Virus record (IMG/VR): IMGVR_UViG_3300037502_003029
Coordinates: 1,052-65,051 of that record
Direction: 5' to 3' (one strand)
Length of the DNA: 64,000 nt
Origin: a virus
Positions 1,723-46,018 of the stretch are shown here, piece by piece (positions within the stretch are counted from its first letter, which is position 1; each line of letters starts with the position of its first letter). The position numbers were made by a program, and so were the translations under genes. A model generated the notes under the pieces. That model was given only the letters and a program-made list of their open reading frames with translations, had not been told where the DNA came from and made no database searches.

Positions 1723-2175
1723 TTAGCTTATTGAAATAGAAGGTACATTATTAATGCTAACTTCTGGTGGAATAGGAATACAATCTCCAGTGCACTTATC
1801 ACAAGTTTCATATTCATCGCAATTTACGTTTACACAATTATTAGTATAAACTATAATTATTTTACCAAAATCTGATAATCTACCACAAGCTACTTTATAA
1901 ACTATCTCACCGGGAGCGTAGTTATTATTTACAGGCGTAAATGTAACGGCTGTAGAAGTTATTGTAGGATTAGATACGTTTTTAGATGATATTATTGAGT
2001 ATACTGCAGGCGTGCTACCACAAGCTGCAATAACTGGAGATATATCAATATCAGTAACAGGATCACAAGCTGTAACTTGATCCGTAACTAACATGTTAGG
2101 TGTATATATACAGTTCCCACCGCACGCTGGTGCTGGTGGACTTATAACTGTAGGAGTACAAGTACAAAGACCCAT
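1723..2175 (-). CDS. Cys-rich hypothetical virion protein
   Basis: ORF track, 150 aa, 14 Cys, in the structural block. Confidence 0.4.
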   Translation of the reverse strand: MGLCTCTPTVISPPAPACGGNCIYTPNMLVTDQVTACDPVTDIDISPVIAACGSTPAVYSIISSKNVSNPTITSTAVTFTPVNNNYAPGEIVYKVACGRLSDFGKIIIVYTNNCVNVNCDEYETCDKCTGDCIPIPPEVSINNVPSISIS

Positions 2176-2195
2176 TATTAATTATTTATTAGTTA

Positions 2196-2741
2196 TTAAG
2201 GTGCTACTACTACAATTGCGCAAGTGGCTGTAAAGCCTCCATCAGTTGATGTAAATGTAATAGTAGATGTACCTGCAGCAATGGCTGTTACCAAACCGGA
2301 TGAATTAACTGTAGCTTTTGCAGTATTACTTGAAGTCCAATCACCTGTTTGTATTGCTCCTAGAGGTAATACAGTTGCTGTAAGTTGTCTTGTAGCACCA
2401 ACAGTTAAATTAGTACCTACTAAACATCCAGTAATAGTTACACTAGTAGCAGAAGGTGCAGCATTAGTTTTATAAGTACAAACAGCTTCAGCAGCATCTG
2501 CTAAAGTCATTATTGTTAATGAACCATCTACTACCATTAAAGCTACTTTTCTATCTATATCACCTGATACTGGATTAAAATCAGGTAAAACAATATAACC
2601 GTCAGGATGGATATAATATCCACACTCAGGGTCATTGTATATCATTTTCTCTACAGGAACTTTAGAACCATCTCTAGTAAAACGAGATGCTACTCCTCTA
2701 TGAAAATAAACAAAAGGGTCTTTAGGATTTATTCTTCCCAT
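2196..2741 (-). CDS. Bacterial Ig-like (Big_2-type) domain protein, possible capsid/tail decoration
   Basis: C-terminal ...GLVTAIAAGTSTITFTSTDGGFTATCAIVV resembles the Big_2 signature. Confidence 0.45.
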   Translation of the reverse strand: MGRINPKDPFVYFHRGVASRFTRDGSKVPVEKMIYNDPECGYYIHPDGYIVLPDFNPVSGDIDRKVALMVVDGSLTIMTLADAAEAVCTYKTNAAPSATSVTITGCLVGTNLTVGATRQLTATVLPLGAIQTGDWTSSNTAKATVNSSGLVTAIAAGTSTITFTSTDGGFTATCAIVVVAP

Positions 2742-2754
2742 TTTATATTAATTT

Positions 2755-3249
2755 TTAACATTTACAATTTAAGTGTTCAAACATTTTTTTTACAATTGTG
2801 TAGTGTTCTATAGCTTCAATAGTATTGCAAATTCGAGAGTTTGCTTTTATAAATTCTATTTCTTTAAATATTGGTAGTACAGAAGATTCGTACTTTTCTA
2901 AATCAGTAGTTATTAGTAATTTAGTATAAGAACACATTATATGTATTAGTATTGCTTCACATCTTGTATATATATCTCCACATGTTTCTATGATAAATTC
3001 GTATATACCATCGTTTCCGCAACCATTATCAGAAGGTAGATCACAATATTTTATTATTGTAGTTCCACCTACTCGTATATCTATTATTTTAGATTTATCT
3101 CCGTTTTTTATAGTTAGAGGGTGAGTTTCTAATGGAGAATTAAATTCAGAAGTAATCCATTCACTTTTATCAACAAATAATAAATAATCTTCTTTGTATT
3201 CAATTACAAAATTAAAATTATTATTTGCTATGCAGGAGCATTTCTTCAT
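2755..3249 (-). CDS. Hypothetical Cys-rich protein
   Basis: ORF track, 164 aa. Confidence 0.4.
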   Translation of the reverse strand: MKKCSCIANNNFNFVIEYKEDYLLFVDKSEWITSEFNSPLETHPLTIKNGDKSKIIDIRVGGTTIIKYCDLPSDNGCGNDGIYEFIIETCGDIYTRCEAILIHIMCSYTKLLITTDLEKYESSVLPIFKEIEFIKANSRICNTIEAIEHYTIVKKMFEHLNCKC

Positions 3250-3267
3250 TTATTTGTTATTTTAAAA

Positions 3268-3300
3268 GGATACTGCCGAAGCAGTACCCTTTTTATTTTT
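3268..3300. terminator. Hairpin GGATACTGC-CGAA-GCAGTACCC flanked by T/A runs (bidirectional terminator candidate)
   Basis: Inverted repeat read directly from the sequence, followed by TTTTTATTTTT; lies 3' of the minus gene 3306..4994. Confidence 0.45.
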
Positions 3301-3305
3301 AATTA

Positions 3306-4994
3306 TTAACCTCCGATTATGTTACCGTTTGCATTTCTATAACCTGCAGCGTTTACAGTATAGTTAGCATTCAGCGTCCTTTCAACTTGATCTTGATCTG
3401 AAGCGCATGTTACAGATTGGAAGAGTTTACCGGGTACAGAAGCAATCCACGGATTTATAATTGCTTCAAAAGATGTTTTAAACGCTGTATTAGTATTAGG
3501 TACAACAACAGTTAATCGTGTATGAATATCACTGTTATGAGCAAATACGGAAGTATCTTTAGTAACACCATCGTATTCAAAGTTGTAAATACATACAGTA
3601 TCAAAACTATCACAACCTTTAAAGATACCGTGACCCATTGCTGGAGTACGAGAACCAGGTGTAAAGTTTAAATACCTTCCAGAGAATTCATCATAACCCC
3701 AGCTAAATGGTTCGTTCATAGAAGTATCTTGTCTCAAGATATCATGAGCAACTTCGTAAACTAATCCACGAGGTATTTTGTAATCTTGGAATACAAACGT
3801 TTTGAATAAACCAATATTATTGTTGTTGTAACTAGTAGTTACGTTAATATCAGTATATAAAGTTTTTTTCCAATTATCAGGTCTATCAGCAAACTTATTG
3901 ATATCAATAGGTTTAGCAACTACCCTAATAAAGGCGCATGGAGTAACTGTAGTAGAAGTACCACAAGAACCACAATGACCTTGTTTAGTTACAGTATGAG
4001 TAGGTAATCCTGTATCGCATGGAGTAATAGGAGTAGCTTCATCACCTAACAATACGACAGGAACACAAGCGTTAATTAAAATTTTAACACCATCACAGCA
4101 AGGTTTTGCTGTACCTGTAAAAGTAGATGCGTTTAATGCATAACCTTTATCTCCTAAAGCATCGTTAATTTGTTTGATAATTTTATCTACATCAGATACT
4201 CTTGATAACGTATCATCTGCAGGATCTGTAGTTCCTACAAAAGTAGTAGTAACTTCATCCTCACCTTCTCCAATAGTAATACCAGTAATAGCAGAAATAG
4301 TATTACAACCTACACAAGCTGCATCTGCAGTAGTAAAACAGAATTGATAATCATATGGATGCAATACATATACGTGAAATGGACGATCTTTATCTTGATG
4401 CTGTCTAACCCTTCGTATTAAAGAGATATTATCTTTTAAAGAATAGTCTCTATCTTTACCATTAAATTTGTTAACAAGAGCACAAGCTACTTCTTTACAT
4501 TCTAAGGATTGTTCACAACCTTCGCAAGGATCAAAATCAAATTCTACAGTTTCAGTCCATCTTTCATAATCTCTATAATTATAGAAACGTTCTGTTTGCT
4601 CATCACGAGCTTCAATGGTCATAGAAAAAGAGTTACCTCTCTCCATACAACCAATACCTACGTCAATTATTTTAACTTGACCGCACTCAGGTGGTTCAGC
4701 AGTAACTGCATTAAGAGATGTAGCTGCAACTTTCTCAAAAGGAGCTTTTCTTAATACCATACCATCTTTTGTCTGCACACCTTGAGCTATACCCAAGTTA
4801 GGACAAGTACTAGCAGTAACACCAGCACCTACTGATACAAAAGTATCAGCATTATAGATAACGATTTGACCATCCCTAATATTAGGATTAAGTCCATAAA
4901 CATTACCTATTTCTACGAATATGGCTTGATTAGCTGGAAAAATATCTAAATTTTTATCAGCAACCAACCATCTGTCAAAAGCAATTCTAGACAT
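3306..4994 (-). CDS. Hypothetical virion structural protein (562 aa, multiple CxxC/CC clusters)
   Basis: Long ORF immediately downstream of the capsid-module genes. Confidence 0.45.
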   Translation of the reverse strand: MSRIAFDRWLVADKNLDIFPANQAIFVEIGNVYGLNPNIRDGQIVIYNADTFVSVGAGVTASTCPNLGIAQGVQTKDGMVLRKAPFEKVAATSLNAVTAEPPECGQVKIIDVGIGCMERGNSFSMTIEARDEQTERFYNYRDYERWTETVEFDFDPCEGCEQSLECKEVACALVNKFNGKDRDYSLKDNISLIRRVRQHQDKDRPFHVYVLHPYDYQFCFTTADAACVGCNTISAITGITIGEGEDEVTTTFVGTTDPADDTLSRVSDVDKIIKQINDALGDKGYALNASTFTGTAKPCCDGVKILINACVPVVLLGDEATPITPCDTGLPTHTVTKQGHCGSCGTSTTVTPCAFIRVVAKPIDINKFADRPDNWKKTLYTDINVTTSYNNNNIGLFKTFVFQDYKIPRGLVYEVAHDILRQDTSMNEPFSWGYDEFSGRYLNFTPGSRTPAMGHGIFKGCDSFDTVCIYNFEYDGVTKDTSVFAHNSDIHTRLTVVVPNTNTAFKTSFEAIINPWIASVPGKLFQSVTCASDQDQVERTLNANYTVNAAGYRNANGNIIGG

Positions 4995-15691: not shown

Positions 15692-15706
15692 GCTATTTTA
15701 TTTAAG

Positions 15707-15778
15707 CGGGATATAAGAGAATCGAACTCTTATTACACGATAGACAGTCGTGGGTAATAACCATTATACCAATATCCC
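15707..15778 (-). tRNA. tRNA-Asp (anticodon GTC)
   Basis: Folded by hand: acceptor GGGATAT/ATATCCC, D-arm with GG, anticodon stem CACGA/TCGTG with loop CTGTCTA, T-arm AAGAG-TTCGATT-CTCTT. Confidence 0.75.
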
Positions 15779-25643: not shown

Positions 25644-25726
25644 GCTGCGGTGGTGGAATTGGTATACACGTAGGACTTAAAATCCTATTCCATAATGGAT
25701 TGTGGGTTCGAGTCCCACCCGCAGTA
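25644..25726 (+). tRNA. tRNA-Leu (anticodon TAA), type II with long variable arm
   Basis: Acceptor GCTGCGG/CCGCAGT, anticodon stem TAGGA/TCCTA with loop CTTAAAA, variable arm TCCAT-AAT-ATGGA, T-arm GTGGG-TTCGAGT-CCCAC. Confidence 0.75.
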
Positions 25727-25980
25727 CAATAGCTATAAATCTTTCACATATGTAAATACATGAAAGATTTGATGGTTAGTAAACCTCGCAGTGAAGGTTT
25801 GACCATAGTAGACAACTCTACATTGGTATTTTGGAAGCTGCACTTTTTTTGATTATATAACCATTTAAATCATAAATATGTTTTCAACAATTACCTACAC
25901 AAAAGAAGCGTTATTACATTTGCAAAACGCAACACCTCAACAACAACGCATTCTAAGCAGAATGCAAAAAACAGGTAAAA

Positions 25981-30505: not shown

Positions 30506-30578
30506 TGACTCATAGTGTAATGGTTTAGCACCACAGTTTTTGAAGCTGTTAGTTTAGGTTCAAATCCTAATGAGTCAT
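30506..30578 (+). tRNA. tRNA-Gln (anticodon TTG)
   Basis: Acceptor TGACTCA/TGAGTCA, D-stem GTGT/GCAC, anticodon stem ACAGT/GCTGT with loop TTTTGAA, T-arm TTAGG-TTCAAAT-CCTAA. Confidence 0.8.
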
Positions 30579-30599
30579 CACTTTATTAAATTTTAAATC

Positions 30600-34166: not shown

Positions 34167-34535
34167 ATGAGCAAAATCAGTCTAGAAAGATTTAAACAAA
34201 GTATTAAATCAGGTAAAATACCTATTAAAAAAAGATACGGCGGTAAGCTAAAATGGTTCGGAGAACTTGCAGTTTTTGGTGATTATGTATTGGATTCAGT
34301 AACCGCAGAATTTGATTATAAAGGAGTTGATAAAAATAAAATTAAAAACTTTTTAAATTCAAATGAATTTATGCGATTTTGTACTCCAAAATTATATCCC
34401 AAAAACTGCACTTATTATAGCGGTCCATTTTTAGCTGATGCTGCCGAAGCTTATATAGGTAGATTATTTTTAAACAGTGGCGAAAAAGCTGTAACAGAAT
34501 ATATATTACACAATTTAAGAAAATATATAGAATAA
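34167..34535 (+). CDS. Hypothetical protein
   Basis: ORF track. Confidence 0.4.
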   Translation: MSKISLERFKQSIKSGKIPIKKRYGGKLKWFGELAVFGDYVLDSVTAEFDYKGVDKNKIKNFLNSNEFMRFCTPKLYPKNCTYYSGPFLADAAEAYIGRLFLNSGEKAVTEYILHNLRKYIE

Positions 34536-34588: not shown

Positions 34589-34915
34589 ATGAAGCATAAA
34601 GTATTAAAAAAACATTTAAAAGAAGGAAATATATTACCAATATATATAAATTGGCAAGAACAACAAGGTTTTAGAGGTAATGCAGTATTATTAAAACGAT
34701 TGGTAAGTAGAGAACCACCAGAAGAAGATAAAATTTATTTATTTAAAGAAATAGGTGATATAATAAAAGATCGCTTAAAAGATAAAATAAATATACTTTA
34801 TTCTTATCAGTGGTGGAGAATTGAATTTATTGATGGTCCAAATTCAGGATTTGTAACTGCTGTAAAAATAGCATATTACAAAAGAACTTTTTGGCAAACA
34901 GAAGAAGAAGAATAA
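34589..34915 (+). CDS. Hypothetical protein
   Basis: ORF track. Confidence 0.4.
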   Translation: MKHKVLKKHLKEGNILPIYINWQEQQGFRGNAVLLKRLVSREPPEEDKIYLFKEIGDIIKDRLKDKINILYSYQWWRIEFIDGPNSGFVTAVKIAYYKRTFWQTEEEE

Positions 34916-34917
34916 CT

Positions 34918-36063
34918 ATGACAATAAGATTTTTTGATTTAGAAATATATCCAAACTTATTTGTAGCTGTATTTTATAATCCTTATGATAAAGAATATAC
35001 AACTTTTACATTATGGGAGCATAATGGATTAGCACAAATAAATGAATTACCGCAATTAAAAAAATATCTTAAAGATAATTCAGATATTTATTTTTGTGGA
35101 TATAATTCTTTAGGATATGATATGCAAATTCTTACAGAAATTATAAAAAAGAATTTGTGTACTACAGACCAGATTAAGCAATTTAATGATTACTTAATAT
35201 CACAGGAATGGCCTATATATAGAGAAAAAGATTTATGTGGTAAAACACTAGATTTAATGCTTATCAATAATTATGGACCAAAAAGCGCTAAAAGTACATC
35301 ATTAAAAAAACTTGAGTTTAATCTTAGAAAAAAGAAAATACAAGATTTACCATATCATTTTAATGATTTAATAACAAAAGAATCTGAAGTAAATGATATT
35401 ATAAAATATTGTAAGTATGACGTAGAAGTTACTGTAGATGTATTTAGATTGAGTAAAGAACTTATTAATTTAAGATTAGAATTTGAACCTATAATTGGAG
35501 AATCTGTATTAAATTCACCTGAACCTGATTTAGCTAAAAAGTTTGTTTATAAAGAATTAGCTAATTATATGGATATTGATGTTAATACTTTTAAGAAACT
35601 AAGAACTTATCATGAAGAAATAAAAGTTAAAGATTTAATATTACCTTTTATTAACTTTACAAAAGAACATTATAAAGAAGTATTAGATTATTATAACGGA
35701 CTAGTTTTAAATGCTACTAATAAATCAGTATTAGGAAATCAAAAAGTAATAAACTTAAAAAATGCAGTAAACAAAACTATTAATTATGATGGTTTAGAAA
35801 CTGTATACGGTAGTGGAGGTATTCACGCTTCAGTAGAAGCTGGTGTATATTCAGAGTCTGAAGAATATATGATTACTACTGCTGATTTTACATCTTATTA
35901 TCCTCATTTACAGTTTATACATGATTGTATAGCAGGACATATACCATCTGAATTATATTCTAAATTAGTTAAATATCTTTTTGCAGAAAGAAAAAAACAT
36001 GCTAAAGGAACAAGCTTAAACTATGTATATAAAATTATGATTAATTTACTTTACGGTGGTTAA
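34918..36063 (+). CDS. Family-B DNA polymerase, exon 1 (3'-5' exonuclease domain through polymerase motif B); alternative start at 34891
   Basis: Exo I FDLEIYPN, Exo II GYNSLGYDMQIL (YGYNxxxFDxxxL), Exo III YCKYDVEV. The ORF ends exactly at motif B, KIMINLLYGG (Kx3NSxYG). Confidence 0.55.
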   Translation: MTIRFFDLEIYPNLFVAVFYNPYDKEYTTFTLWEHNGLAQINELPQLKKYLKDNSDIYFCGYNSLGYDMQILTEIIKKNLCTTDQIKQFNDYLISQEWPIYREKDLCGKTLDLMLINNYGPKSAKSTSLKKLEFNLRKKKIQDLPYHFNDLITKESEVNDIIKYCKYDVEVTVDVFRLSKELINLRLEFEPIIGESVLNSPEPDLAKKFVYKELANYMDIDVNTFKKLRTYHEEIKVKDLILPFINFTKEHYKEVLDYYNGLVLNATNKSVLGNQKVINLKNAVNKTINYDGLETVYGSGGIHASVEAGVYSESEEYMITTADFTSYYPHLQFIHDCIAGHIPSELYSKLVKYLFAERKKHAKGTSLNYVYKIMINLLYGG

Positions 36064-37035
36064 TATTATGTTAATTTCTTATTATTATTATTATATTTAT
36101 AATTATTTTTTATGCATATTTGTATAAAAATATATAAACGAGAAAATAATATAATAGATAGATACAGCCGCTTATTAGAGCAATCTAATATGAAAAACTC
36201 CTTAAATTCGGTGGACGCTCCAGAACAGAGTAATACCGAGCCAAGCATTAATTTAAATGATTAATGAAGGTGTAACGACTAGAGAAATAATTAAAACAAT
36301 TTAAAATCACAAATTAGTGTATTATGCAAAATAGAGAAAAATCATTGTTAATTGCTATGTGCATCGGAGACGGTCACATAGTAAAAGATCCTAATTCCAA
36401 ATCATGTTCGCTTATAATAAGACATTCTACAAAACAAATAGAATGGATAGAAAAAAAACATGAATTGATAGTTTCTATATTAGGAGGGTATGTTCCTAAA
36501 TTAACTAAATTTAATAATTCAGGTTATCCTGGAATTAGATTTAGTAAAAGTTCAAAATACTTTAGGGTATTAAGAAAATGGATATATCCAAATAATAAAA
36601 AAAATATATCAAGATATATATTAAATAAACTTGATGAAGAAGGTATTGCTATATGGTATATGGATGACGGTGGATTGAGTGCTAAAAGAAGAAATGGGAA
36701 AATACATGCTTATAATCTGTTTTTGAATACTCATCTTACTATTGAAGAAAATCAAATAATAATCAATTATTTTAAAGAAGTTTGGGATATTAATTTTCAG
36801 CAAGTAAAAAATAAAGGTCATTATAGATTAAGAATGGGTACTAAAGAAATTAGAAAATTTATACCATTAATTTCAAAATACATCATTCCTTCTATGCAAT
36901 ATAAGATAACAATGAATTTTAATTGAAATTATTTTTCCACGAAAAAGGAGCATCCTACAGGGATGAAGATATAGTCTGGACTGCATATATAGTTCATAAA
37001 TAAAAATGCAGAACTACAAGATAAAGAGCTTGTAG
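36064..37035 (+). other. Intervening sequence in the DNA polymerase gene (candidate group I intron carrying a homing-endonuclease ORF); the 3' boundary lies somewhere in 37036..37113
   Basis: The polymerase frame stops immediately after motif B. A LAGLIDADG ORF sits in another frame, and the polymerase reading frame reopens at 37036. Confidence 0.45.
36324..36926 (+). CDS. LAGLIDADG-family homing endonuclease
   Basis: Two LAGLIDADG-like motifs, LIAMCIGDGHI and IAIWYMDDGGL. Confidence 0.55.
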   Translation: MQNREKSLLIAMCIGDGHIVKDPNSKSCSLIIRHSTKQIEWIEKKHELIVSILGGYVPKLTKFNNSGYPGIRFSKSSKYFRVLRKWIYPNNKKNISRYILNKLDEEGIAIWYMDDGGLSAKRRNGKIHAYNLFLNTHLTIEENQIIINYFKEVWDINFQQVKNKGHYRLRMGTKEIRKFIPLISKYIIPSMQYKITMNFN

Positions 37036-37113
37036 GATAACAAATCGTTAAGTAATTCTGAATACTCTGCATTATTTGATACTAAAGCTACTCTTAAAAC
37101 TACTATAAACGGT

Positions 37114-37869
37114 ATGCTTAGTATTAGTATGATAGCTGATAAAATATATGATATTCCTAAAGCTAGAATATTAATGAAAAATACAGATGGTTTAGAAGTA
37201 TATCATTTAAGAACTGATAAAGATCTTGTTGAAAAAATACTAAATGAAATATCTGAATTGATTAATATACCTATTGAAATAGGTTATTATAGTAAAATGA
37301 TTATATTAAATGTTAACAACTATATAGCTGTAGATGTTAATAAAAAAGTAAAAACAAAAGGTCTTTTTGAAGATTATAATGATATAATAATCGCTGGTAT
37401 GTATCATAAAGATACTTCAGCTATGATAATTCCTAAAGCATTAAAAGCTTTTTTTGTTAATGATATTCCAGTAGAACAAACTATTAATGAAGAAAATTCT
37501 ATTTATGAGTTTTGTTATGGTAATAAAGGTAGTAGTTCATATAAATGGATGTTAACAGAATACGATCCTGAATTAAAAGTAGCAACTTCAGAATTATTTG
37601 ATTCTAGGTTTATACGATATTATGCAGGAGGATATCAAACTATATCACAACTTTGGACAAATGGTAAAAAAGCAGGTCAAATACAAGCAGTACAAGCTAA
37701 AACGCCTGTTACTTTAGCTATGAATATTCCAAAAGAAGATATTTTTGATTATAAAAAAGGAGAGCGTATATATAAAGAAAAAGAACGCTATCCTAATTTA
37801 AATAGGGAATGGTATATTTCAGAATGTTATAAAATTATTAACCAAATTTTAAATAATGAAAAAGTTTAG
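37114..37869 (+). CDS. Family-B DNA polymerase, exon 2 (C-terminal palm/thumb; the frame is open upstream to 37036)
   Basis: Follows the interrupted polymerase gene; KNTDGLEVY is a possible variant of motif C (YGDTDS). Confidence 0.4.
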   Translation: MLSISMIADKIYDIPKARILMKNTDGLEVYHLRTDKDLVEKILNEISELINIPIEIGYYSKMIILNVNNYIAVDVNKKVKTKGLFEDYNDIIIAGMYHKDTSAMIIPKALKAFFVNDIPVEQTINEENSIYEFCYGNKGSSSYKWMLTEYDPELKVATSELFDSRFIRYYAGGYQTISQLWTNGKKAGQIQAVQAKTPVTLAMNIPKEDIFDYKKGERIYKEKERYPNLNREWYISECYKIINQILNNEKV

Positions 37870-38200
37870 TTTACTTTTATTTTTGTTGTTTTCTTTGAGT
37901 TTATCAGCTCAAGAAAACTTTATTACTACATCTGTAGCAGCTAAGCAAGGTATTTTTACAAGTGCTAAACAGTACAATGTAGTTAGTTTTATAAATATTT
38001 ATGATAACTCAATATATCATATTGTTGATAACAAAACATATGTTTATTTAATTAATAATAGACAAATTACGCATGATTATATTATTTATACTTGCTATAG
38101 AGATGGTAAAAATTGGCAAATAAAAAAATCTAATAATCAAATAAGTTTTAAAAATGTATTTTCTAATGATGAAGTAATTTTTTATTATGAAACATATTGA
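37856..38200 (+). CDS. Hypothetical secreted protein
   Basis: Signal peptide MKKFSLLLFLLFSLSLSAQ. Confidence 0.4.
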   Translation: MKKFSLLLFLLFSLSLSAQENFITTSVAAKQGIFTSAKQYNVVSFINIYDNSIYHIVDNKTYVYLINNRQITHDYIIYTCYRDGKNWQIKKSNNQISFKNVFSNDEVIFYYETY

Positions 38201-38498
38201 TGGTCGAATATTTTTATGGGGACCAATCATACTTTATATTATATATTATATAGTTTCATTAATAACAAATCATTTAGATGGTTTAGTCGGAGAAGAAAGA
38301 GATATTTTTATACAAGACGTTGTAGTAGTTAGTTGTTTAATTTTAATAGCGTGGTCAGTATTTTCTGTATGTATGCATGTATTTTATGATAATCAGATGT
38401 ATATAATTTATAGTCCTTCAGTTATATTTATTCTTTTATGGATATTTATAGAAAAATTAAACAAATTTTTTAAAAAACATTTTACAATAAAGTTATGA
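38187..38498 (+). CDS. Small membrane protein, paralog 1 of 6 (C-terminal KKHFTIKL)
   Basis: Shared N-terminal hydrophobic pattern and C-terminal motif; ATGA overlap with the next gene. Confidence 0.45.
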   Translation: MKHIDGRIFLWGPIILYIIYYIVSLITNHLDGLVGEERDIFIQDVVVVSCLILIAWSVFSVCMHVFYDNQMYIIYSPSVIFILLWIFIEKLNKFFKKHFTIKL

Positions 38499-38818
38499 AA
38501 GGTAGAATTTTTTTTCAATTAATATTAGTAAATATAATATTATACTATTTATATATTTATATACCTATATTATGGAAATCTGAAGTGTTTAAAGCAGTTG
38601 TTTTTATATTGGGTATAATTTATATTGTATTGTCTATTGTAGTATTTTTTTCATTAATACAAAACATATTAGATGATGGTTGGAAAAACACAATTAATAC
38701 AATGTATTTAGATTACTCTTCTTATGATTATATTATGCACTGGTTATTTTGCCCTTTACCAATACTATATGAATTAATAGCTGAATTTTTTGACAAACAT
38801 TTTACAATTAAATCATGA
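38495..38818 (+). CDS. Small membrane protein, paralog 2 of 6 (C-terminal DKHFTIKS)
   Basis: As above. Confidence 0.45.
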   Translation: MKGRIFFQLILVNIILYYLYIYIPILWKSEVFKAVVFILGIIYIVLSIVVFFSLIQNILDDGWKNTINTMYLDYSSYDYIMHWLFCPLPILYELIAEFFDKHFTIKS

Positions 38819-39108
38819 AAATACCAGGTTTGACATTTATAATTGTTCCTATAATTATCTATTTAATATACTTATATTTTCCTGATATTGTTTGTTTTTT
38901 TTCAGAAGCTGACGGTGAAAGTATTCTTAAATTTATATTGTTTTTTACTTTTTTTAATGCAATATTAATAATAATACTTGGAATAAGTGGTGTAGAAAAT
39001 TCAGATCCTGAAATATTGTTTGATAAATATCTATATGTATGGGTAATTAGTAAAATAATGTTTAAAATTCTAATATATATTAATGAAAAATTAACAATTA
39101 AATTATGA
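38815..39108 (+). CDS. Small membrane protein, paralog 3 of 6 (C-terminal EKLTIKL)
   Basis: As above. Confidence 0.45.
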   Translation: MKIPGLTFIIVPIIIYLIYLYFPDIVCFFSEADGESILKFILFFTFFNAILIIILGISGVENSDPEILFDKYLYVWVISKIMFKILIYINEKLTIKL

Positions 39109-39449
39109 TACGAGGATATTGGTTTTTATATGGTCCTGTTATAATAAGTATTTTATATTATTTAATAAGTTTAATAGATTTTTCTTTAATAATCGAAAAT
39201 TGGAAACAATTAGATGAACATGGTAAAATGGATTTTATTTATTTACTTATATTGATATGTTTTACATGGATACTAATATTTTCTCCACCTATTTGCTCAT
39301 ATGGAAGCGAAGATTGGTATAAATTTACTATCTTACAAAAGATGCTTATGATTATAAATCCACTTTTTATAATTTCAAATTTATTAGATTTAATATTAAA
39401 TATTCATAAATTTTTAGACAAATATTTAACAATAAAATTAAAAAAATGA
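39105..39449 (+). CDS. Small membrane protein, paralog 4 of 6 (C-terminal DKYLTIKLKK)
   Basis: As above. Confidence 0.45.
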   Translation: MIRGYWFLYGPVIISILYYLISLIDFSLIIENWKQLDEHGKMDFIYLLILICFTWILIFSPPICSYGSEDWYKFTILQKMLMIINPLFIISNLLDLILNIHKFLDKYLTIKLKK

Positions 39450-45379: not shown

Positions 45380-46018
45380 ATGGAAACAGCAGATACTAAT
45401 AATTATTTTATTTATTGCTTAAAAGATCCTATTTCTTTAGAAATACGATATATAGGTTTTACTAGTAAAACTTTAAAATATAGATTATCAAAACATATTG
45501 ATAACGCAAAATATAATAAACACAATAAACATTTGTGTAATTGGATTTTGAAATATTTAAAGTTAGATTTAAAACCTATTATTGAACTAATAGAAATTTG
45601 TAATGAAGATAATTGGATAGAACGTGAAAAATATTGGATAAAATGTTATTCAAATCTATTAAATATTTCAGAAGGTGGAGATAAAAATATAATAAATCAC
45701 ACAGAAGAAACAAAACAATTATTAAGAATACAAAAATTAGGTAAAAAACCTAGTAAAGAAACTTTAGAAAAAAGAAGTAAATCTTTAAAAGGTAGAATTT
45801 TTTCAGAAGAGCATAAGAAAAAAATTTCTGAATCTAATAAAAAGAGATCTTTAGAAAAAAATAAAATAAAAGTTATTGATATAGTTAATAATATTGAAAC
45901 TATTTATTTAGGTAGACAGGCTGTAAAAGAAGCTTGTAATATAGGTTTAATGACTATATATAGAAATCTAAATAAAGATAAAATTATTAAAAATCAATAC
46001 AAATTAGTAAAGATATAG
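45380..46018 (+). CDS. GIY-YIG homing endonuclease with NUMOD-like C-terminal repeats
   Basis: YFIYCL...RYIGFTSKTLKYRLSKHI is a GIY-YIG module; repeated K.S..LKG / EEHKKKISESNKKR segments are NUMOD3-like. Confidence 0.65.
   Translation: METADTNNYFIYCLKDPISLEIRYIGFTSKTLKYRLSKHIDNAKYNKHNKHLCNWILKYLKLDLKPIIELIEICNEDNWIEREKYWIKCYSNLLNISEGGDKNIINHTEETKQLLRIQKLGKKPSKETLEKRSKSLKGRIFSEEHKKKISESNKKRSLEKNKIKVIDIVNNIETIYLGRQAVKEACNIGLMTIYRNLNKDKIIKNQYKLVKI

Follow-up and report, generated by a model that had tools for sequence, protein, structure and literature searches.

Group I introns are classical occupants of phage DNA polymerase genes, as in SPO1 and Bastille, and typical targets of phage introns are said to include DNA polymerases (PMC3984707). 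The endonucleases usually encoded in phage introns are of the GIY-YIG, HNH, PD-(D/E)xK and EDxHD types (PMC3984707), a list from which LAGLIDADG is absent and beside which it therefore appears as a less common type. In crAss-like phages, group I introns have been described in PolB, MCP (major capsid protein) and primase genes, along with intron-encoded LAGLIDADG (Yutin et al. 2021; PMC7886860), and jumbo gut phages, where metatranscriptomes confirmed splicing, follow the same intron pattern (PMC12880540). The locus described here is a further example of the group I introns already documented in phage polymerases, among them crAss-like PolB. It lies in a 64,000-nucleotide (nt) stretch of the IMG/VR virus record IMGVR_UViG_3300037502_003029 (positions 1,052 to 65,051 of that record), called the window throughout, where the gene for a family B DNA polymerase (PolB) is interrupted at motif B by a 990-nt intervening sequence containing a LAGLIDADG endonuclease gene; this sequence is very probably a group I intron that splits a single polymerase gene.

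The introns of SPO1, Bastille and the crAss-like Delta and Zeta PolB genes share with the window element the group I type, the resident endonuclease open reading frame (ORF) and a position in a conserved catalytic region of a replicative polymerase. The polymerase intron endonucleases of SPO1 and Bastille are HNH-type and their polymerases belong to family A, whereas the window combines a divergent family B polymerase with a LAGLIDADG enzyme in a crAss-like phage of environmental origin and very high A+T content. The td, nrdB and nrdD introns of T4 (subgroup IA2) offer a second comparison, having in common with the window intron, which is placed in IA only, the extra P7.1 element of IA-type introns between P7 and the 3′ strand of P3, an endonuclease ORF housed in the loop of a peripheral hairpin and, in the window intron's relatives, a GIY-YIG enzyme. 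The endonuclease ORFs of the T4 introns are situated in P6a or P9.1, whereas here GIY-YIG occupies the P1 loop (L1) and LAGLIDADG occupies P7.1, and the host gene differs. The endonuclease itself resembles the I-SceI family in carrying two LAGLIDADG motifs in one chain of ∼200 amino acids (aa), in its LAGLIDADG_2 domain and in its location inside a group I intron; identity is only ∼25–30%, and the host is a phage in place of a fungal mitochondrion.

The upstream polymerase ORF (34891–36063), whose start is probably the ATG at 34918, ends in ...NYVYKIMINLLYGG (YKIMINLLYGG) followed by TAA, and the polymerase frame is open again at 37036–37869; every element of the initial annotation's outline, a polymerase running to motif B, then a stop, then a frame reopening at 37036, is present. 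Exon 1 carries the exonuclease motifs FDLE, NSLGYD and YCKYD, motif A (DFTSYYP) and motif B (KIMINLLYG), while exon 2 supplies motif C (NTDG) and the C-terminal domain and runs through the stop codon at 37867–37869; all catalytic motifs are present and there are no frameshifts. The counter-case posed at the outset, that these might be separate and unrelated genes, is contradicted by the match of the two halves to adjoining stretches of a single profile, PHROG 1252 ‘DNA polymerase’. Conceptually joined, the exons encode a 653-aa polymerase reading ...KIMINLLYG-LSNSEYSALFD..., which aligns with uninterrupted homologs free of gaps where LLYG meets LSNSEY. A search with the joined protein returned 2,360 matches overall, including ∼20 uninterrupted proteins of 652–658 aa with 70–72% identity and 99–100% coverage; alignment of the joined exons, originally suggested as a check, finds ∼656-aa homologs with 71–72% identity covering 99% of the joined protein.

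The family B label attached to the polymerase from the start holds, as judged by profile comparison, for a divergent subfamily. Pfam is blind to the window protein itself, giving no family B match, and a single-sequence search of the phage polymerase against PDB returned nothing, the family profile being required. A profile of 29 family members matches archaeal (Thermococcus, Pyrococcus) family B structures (8s84_A, E 3.7e-10), with an alignment spanning motifs A (DxxSxYP), B (KxxxNSxYG) and C, the last of which reads NTDG here and not DTDS; PF00136 and PF10108 are carried by distant homologs of the window polymerase.

The uninterrupted homologs, which number in the hundreds and in which LLYG with its single glycine is followed by LSNSEY, place the 5′ splice site after T36057 and the beginning of exon 2 at T37048 (exon 1 end ...TTTACGGT; exon 2 start TTAAGTAAT...), the insertion separating the motif B (KxxxNxxYG) Gly codon from the Leu codon next to it. 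The initial annotation had quoted KIMINLLYGG at this point, correctly as the end of motif B, the final G being read-through into the intron, as the single glycine of the homologs indicates. A 5′ splice site after T36060 (LLYGG before L) was considered and rejected, since uninterrupted homologs have one G and the related locus L005 has one GGT. The intron thus delimited starts with GGUUAA and ends in ...AACAAAUCG, keeping the splice-site rule of a U at position −1 and a terminal intron G; this omega-G, at 37047, has a G as its equivalent in all six introns that were aligned. Conservation in exon 2 sets in at 37048, downstream of the reopening of the frame at 37036 and well before the ATG at 37114: the first 22 codons of the exon (LSNSEYSALFDTKATLKTTING) rank with the best conserved in the polymerase family and all lie upstream of that ATG, and no in-frame ATG, GTG or TTG occurs between 37036 and 37113. 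Lacking a start codon, these 22 codons would be expressible only through exon joining.

Structural support comes from an alignment of six introns (the window and the related loci L001, L002, L005, L006 and L022), with ORF-bearing loops excised and 13 helices drawn by hand (P1, P2, P3, P4, P5, P6, P6a, P7 as a pseudoknot, P7.1, P7.1a, P8, P9 and P9.1). Standard pairs occupy 99.0% of the 393 cells formed by 13 helices and six introns, and both sides have changed in 28 of 66 pairs; none of 500 shuffles reached the observed value on four of five measures, and two of 500 did so on the count of further pair types. P7 and P8 show no variation among the six introns, which argues neither for nor against those helices, while P1 and the exon covary, five introns having CGGU/GCCG and L022 having UGGU/GCCA. 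Unconstrained folding of the window composite core recovered P2–P6a, P7.1, P8, P9 and P9.1 (z = −4.18; 0/200 shuffles). The P7.1 stem, directly 3′ of the P7 strand GACUA, is found in 6/6 introns and covaries among them (GGUGU/AUACC, GUUAU/AUAAC, GAUUU/AAAUC), enclosing in the window a 634-nt insert (36293–36926). By the position of P7.1 between P7 and the 3′ strand of P3, the intron is, on comparative structure, of subgroup IA type. The coordinates of all these features are collected in Table 1.

Rfam scans of the whole window and of 35900–37300 gave no Intron_gpI match, a silence ascribed to the 634-nt ORF insert, which cuts the ribozyme core. Searched alone, the 5′ half of the window core (36143–36283) matches RF00028 Intron_gpI (25.4 bits, E 5.2e-5, 3′-truncated, model positions 1–150; gathering score 50 bits), and the short 3′ half alone gives no match. 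The L005 ortholog of the intervening sequence, 556 nt long and lacking an intact endonuclease ORF, matches Intron_gpI at 50.7 bits (E 9e-12), a borderline match that was found in the smaller search and lost when Rfam was run in gathering mode on five loci together. The window core halves are 91.7% (5′) and 92.8% (3′) identical to those of L005, and 99.2% and 97.3% identical to those of L001. The Rfam search that the initial annotation had recommended is accordingly a false negative for the full intervening sequence, while the window 5′ half gives a match below the gathering score and L005 one just above it. The J8/7–P7 sequence GAUGAAGAUAUAGUC agrees with the Rfam consensus, and a scan with the 22-mer GGATGAAGATATAGTCTGGACT from J8/7–P7 found a single occurrence in the window, against a chance expectation of 0, and further ones in 22 IMG/VR contigs, where the surroundings are mostly group I core by eye; because the pattern is a general consensus these are mostly unrelated introns, the same site being represented by L022 only. 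Exact scans of IMG/VR and JGI metagenomes with a 19-mer from the internal guide sequence (IGS) and P2 gave no match, and close relatives came solely from protein-based look-ups.

Table 1. Positions in the window of the split polymerase gene, the proposed intron and the predicted ribozyme elements.
Feature	Position	Strand	Evidence or detail
PolB exon 1	34918..36057	+	PHROG 1252 positions 54-412, E 2e-60; alignment to uninterrupted homologs; family profile vs PDB
Group I intron, subgroup IA-like, 990 nt (predicted)	36058..37047	+	homolog alignment; regex on relatives; structure; covariation; fold z -4.2
P1 5′ strand, exon CGGU	36054-36057	+	last four bases of exon 1
P1 loop (L1), conserved small hairpins	36058..36166	+	comparison of 5′ regions
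GIY-YIG remnant, C-terminal 42 codons	36136..36261	+	tblastn with L001 residues 304-345: 92.9% identity, E 4e-19
Internal guide sequence GCCG, P1 3′ strand	36167..36170	+	pairs in 6/6 introns; U.G wobble at splice site
5′ half of ribozyme core	36174..36281	+	RF00028 match; covariation; identity to L001, L005
P2	36174-79 / 36184-89	+	GCAA loop
P3 5′ strand	36198-203	+	
P4	36207-12 / 36235-40	+	
P5	36218-20 / 36228-30	+	
P6	36241-42 / 36269-70	+	
P6a	36246-52 / 36260-66	+	
P7 5′ strand GACUA	36277-81	+	
P7.1 hairpin, 11-bp stem GAGAAAUAAUU 36282-92 / AAUUAUUUUUC 36927-37	36282..36937	+	sequence; MFE (minimum free energy) fold; relatives' covariation
LAGLIDADG homing endonuclease gene (putative), 200 aa, double-motif, I-SceI-like	36324..36926	+	Pfam; PHROG 11023; PDB; L034 copy
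3′ half of ribozyme core	36945..37047	+	22-mer GGATGAAGATATAGTCTGGACT; covariation in P9, P9.1
P3 3′ strand AAGGAG	36945-50	+	
P8	36951-55 / 36961-65	+	
J8/7 AAGAUA	36966-71	+	
P7 3′ strand UAGUC	36972-76	+	
P9	36981-86 / 37006-11	+	
P9.1	37014-20 / 37029-35	+	
Omega-G	37047	+	last intron base
PolB exon 2	37048..37869	+	starts LSNSEYSALFDTKATLKTTING...; PHROG 1252 positions 414-656, E 1.5e-43

The LAGLIDADG ORF lies where it was first read, 260 nt beyond the end of the upstream ORF, in a different frame and with its own start codon at 36324, and its stop codon abuts the P7.1 stem. Its assignment is supported by a nearly full-length match to Pfam LAGLIDADG_2 (PF03161; 98.1 bits against a cut-off of 25, E 6.8e-28, model positions 4–168 of 168), by the motifs LLIAMCIGDGH and IAIWYMDDGG, and by matches to the solved structures 6x1j (E 5.5e-9) and I-SceI (2e-7) in which both motifs are aligned; IGDGH and YMDDGG fall on LGDVY and FMDDGG of 6x1j, with the acidic residues of both motifs conserved. 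A search found 465 relatives of the protein, and other phage polymerase genes harbour some of these, as in L038. There (Logan DRR438531 contig, L038:766-4684), the family A polymerase gene of another phage is broken into three or more pieces separated by LAGLIDADG_3 and LAGLIDADG_2 ORFs, the LAGLIDADG_2 ORF being 65% identical to the window LAGLIDADG.

A different endonuclease family is resident in several related introns. L001, L002 and L006 carry a ∼345-aa GIY-YIG ORF (∼1040 nt) in a long loop closed by P1, with the last ∼42 codons overlapping the guide-sequence-to-P6a stretch of the ribozyme; retention of these codons in the window (Table 1) explains a spurious 50-aa ORF at 36112–36264. The link between the two arrangements is provided by L034 (Logan SRR31107531 contig), 96–97% identical to the window, whose 1,900-nt intron (1825–3724) contains two endonuclease genes: GIY-YIG in the P1 loop (1904–2941) and LAGLIDADG in P7.1 (3001–3603), the latter 96% identical to, and in the same position as, that of the window. 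By blastn, the window is L034 minus a single 914-nt deletion that reaches from the GIY-YIG start codon to ∼125 nt before the GIY-YIG stop, with its scar at ∼36138–36140 in L1. The LAGLIDADG-in-P7.1 arrangement is found in the window and L034–L036; elsewhere, the GIY-YIG ORF of L005 is reduced to its 3′ ∼290 nt, L022 is a more distant 375-nt intron at the same site with no ORF, and the site is empty (intron-less polymerase) in L008 and most homologs. Identity is higher in the intron core than in the flanking exons (99%/97% vs 78–81% for L001; 85–90% vs 67% for L006), a pattern that fits horizontal spread by homing and to which constraint on the RNA would also contribute.

The deletion is read directly from the alignment, and the order we infer for the remaining events would begin with a GIY-YIG gene alone in the P1 loop (L001, L002, L006), pass through gain of a LAGLIDADG gene in P7.1 to the two-gene state (L034), and end in the window lineage with loss of the GIY-YIG gene by the 914-nt deletion, leaving LAGLIDADG alone. 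Homing endonucleases reportedly pass through a cycle of gain, degeneration and loss (Goddard and Burt 1999), and the states seen among the relatives, namely the empty site, the intact GIY-YIG gene, the 5′-truncated remnant (L005), the ORF-less intron (L022) and the near-complete ORF deletion (window), are stages that this model predicts. The locus departs from the cycle in that a second family invaded another loop (L034) and is the sole survivor in the window, a replacement and not a simple loss; together these introns form a clean natural series of homing-endonuclease turnover within one intron. A more far-reaching proposal, that one endonuclease family was replaced by another within a single intron and that the LAGLIDADG protein turned maturase, compensating for the destroyed interior of P7.1, is unlikely; if it were true, splicing of an essential phage polymerase mRNA would depend on that protein.

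In the mechanism proposed, a single pre-mRNA would be transcribed across both exons and the intron, and the intron RNA would fold into the P1–P9.1 ribozyme, with P1 formed by exon CGGU and guide GCCG and with a P3/P7 pseudoknot. An external guanosine would then attack after U36057, and the freed exon 1 would attack after omega-G 37047 to give a ligated mRNA for the 653-aa polymerase. The LAGLIDADG enzyme presumably cuts intron-less alleles of co-infecting related phages near the junction of TTACTTTAYGGT and TTAAGTAATTC (L008-type intron-less junction: TTACTTTATGGTTTAAGTAATTC), and repair would copy the intron in.

Several observations weigh against this reading, beginning with splicing itself, which is inferred from sequence and structure. 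The intact window intron, like its 3′ half alone, has no Rfam match; the structure was drawn by eye on the same sequences, which inflates the contrast with controls in which partners were slid by 1–3 columns (pairing 33–44%, 2–5 covarying pairs). The covariation of P1 depends on one sequence, L022, and P1 closes an unusually long loop, ∼110 nt in the window and >1 kb in relatives, while a search for P10, between exon 2 and bases 5′ of the guide sequence, found no convincing pairing. The inner part of P7.1 (UGAAAC-stem-GAAUAUAAU), kept by L001, L002, L005, L006 and L022, is absent in the window, where the LAGLIDADG insert occupies its place, and its loss could make folding less efficient or protein-dependent.

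A group I intron nevertheless accounts for the locus better than its rivals. A split polymerase, with two subunits translated separately around a free-standing endonuclease and no RNA splicing, has a precedent in the two-subunit polymerase 43A/43B of some T4-related Aeromonas phages; gene callers mark two polymerase ORFs here, as in the cultured phages Fpv1 and phi14:2, and an ATG is available at 37114 in the downstream ORF. Translation from that ATG, the first possible start, would nonetheless forfeit the 22 conserved codons (LSNSEYSALFDTKATLKTTING), a split at this point cuts through motif B and the helix behind it, a whole group I core with covarying pairs is present between the two halves, and the boundaries of the intervening sequence match the U/omega-G rule exactly, all of which makes separate subunits very improbable. 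The absence of P7.1a from the window alone, when the five other aligned introns have it, might instead mark a decaying intron or pseudogene, in which insertion of the LAGLIDADG gene killed splicing and left a non-functional polymerase or a defective phage. Against such decay, all core helices are intact, as are both exons with all their catalytic motifs and no frameshifts, and two or more diverged lineages (window and L034–L036; 96–97% identity) retain the LAGLIDADG-in-P7.1 arrangement and an undamaged 200-aa ORF, from which it follows that the configuration has been propagated; decay is given a very small probability.

An insertion at a catalytic motif is also what an intein would produce, and archaeal family B polymerases carry inteins at such motifs. 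Stop-codon recoding or read-through has its own precedent in the reassignment of TAG or TGA in some crAss-like phages (PMC7886860). Both are excluded: in-frame stops number 31 in the 990-nt intervening sequence and include every stop codon (18 TAA, 7 TAG, 6 TGA), no suppressor tRNA is found among the window's three tRNA genes, the endonuclease is in another frame with its own start codon, and a Pfam scan of three ORFs, those of both polymerase halves and LAGLIDADG, detects neither a Hint nor an intein domain. The preference originally expressed for a group I intron with a LAGLIDADG gene at motif B, over an intein, is borne out by Rfam, covariation, the splice-site rules and the in-frame stops.

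Interruptions at other catalytic motifs were also observed in this polymerase family. Motif A is interrupted between ...DVDF and ASYYPH in L031 (3975–5004) and in two cultured phages that are annotated with two DNA polymerase genes, the Flavobacterium phage Fpv1 (L032, NC_031914.1; 2550–3480) and the Cellulophaga phage phi14:2 (L033, KC821624.1; 2439–2860). Motif C is interrupted between ...NT and DG... in L039 (4787–5806) and, at the same coordinates, L040, with a 246-aa GIY-YIG ORF and the group I core signatures CAATCAGCAGC, ACAGACTA and AAGATATAGTC. Group I core sequence is seen in all of the motif A and motif C elements, and a GIY-YIG ORF in all except that of phi14:2. Rfam gives partial matches for L031 (43.8 and 26.5 bits) and no match for Fpv1 and phi14:2, though a group I core is visible by eye; routine Rfam scans miss these introns, their cores being divided by endonuclease ORFs. 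Motif A, motif B and motif C of this family have each been invaded in one phage or another, which agrees with the idea that endonucleases find their best targets where DNA is most conserved.

Current understanding of group I introns is unchanged by these results, the main interest being in endonuclease turnover and in a lesson for annotation, namely that two ‘DNA polymerase’ ORFs with ‘hypothetical’ ORFs between them, here and in loci of the Fpv1 and phi14:2 type, are best annotated as one spliced gene. Of practical use could be an I-SceI-like LAGLIDADG enzyme with a predictable, putative target of ∼20 bp and a compact 375-nt ORF-less putative ribozyme (L022).

The phage is a distant crAss-like (Crassvirales-related) one and its host is probably a member of Bacteroidota. 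The large terminase is closest to that of Cellulophaga phage phi14:2 (34% identity), a member of Crassvirales, Flavobacterium phages come next (26%), and Bacteroides phage records are also present among 114 terminase matches; PHROGs identify head, portal and terminase proteins in the window, the polymerase region has ∼24% G+C, and megablast of that region against phage records found no close relative. The three tRNA genes of the window are Asp-GTC (15706–15778, −), Leu-TAA (25644–25727, +) and Gln-TTG (30506–30579, +). A 212-aa ORF with the GIY-YIG motif YFIYCL...IRYIGFT (45380–46018, +), located between two unrelated ORFs and weakly similar to the L001 intron GIY-YIG (31%, E 8e-4), is probably a free-standing homing endonuclease, to judge from its sequence. 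Two genes upstream of the polymerase, a 122-aa ORF (34167–34535, +) has a weak, sub-cut-off match to Pfam Ribonucleas_3_3 (E 0.0023). Downstream, at 38187–39449 (+), are four tandem paralogous small hydrophobic ORFs of 103, 107, 97 and 114 aa, with 25–37% identity to the first, overlapping stop and start codons, and a C-terminal TIK motif (TIKL, TIKS, TIKLKK) in all.

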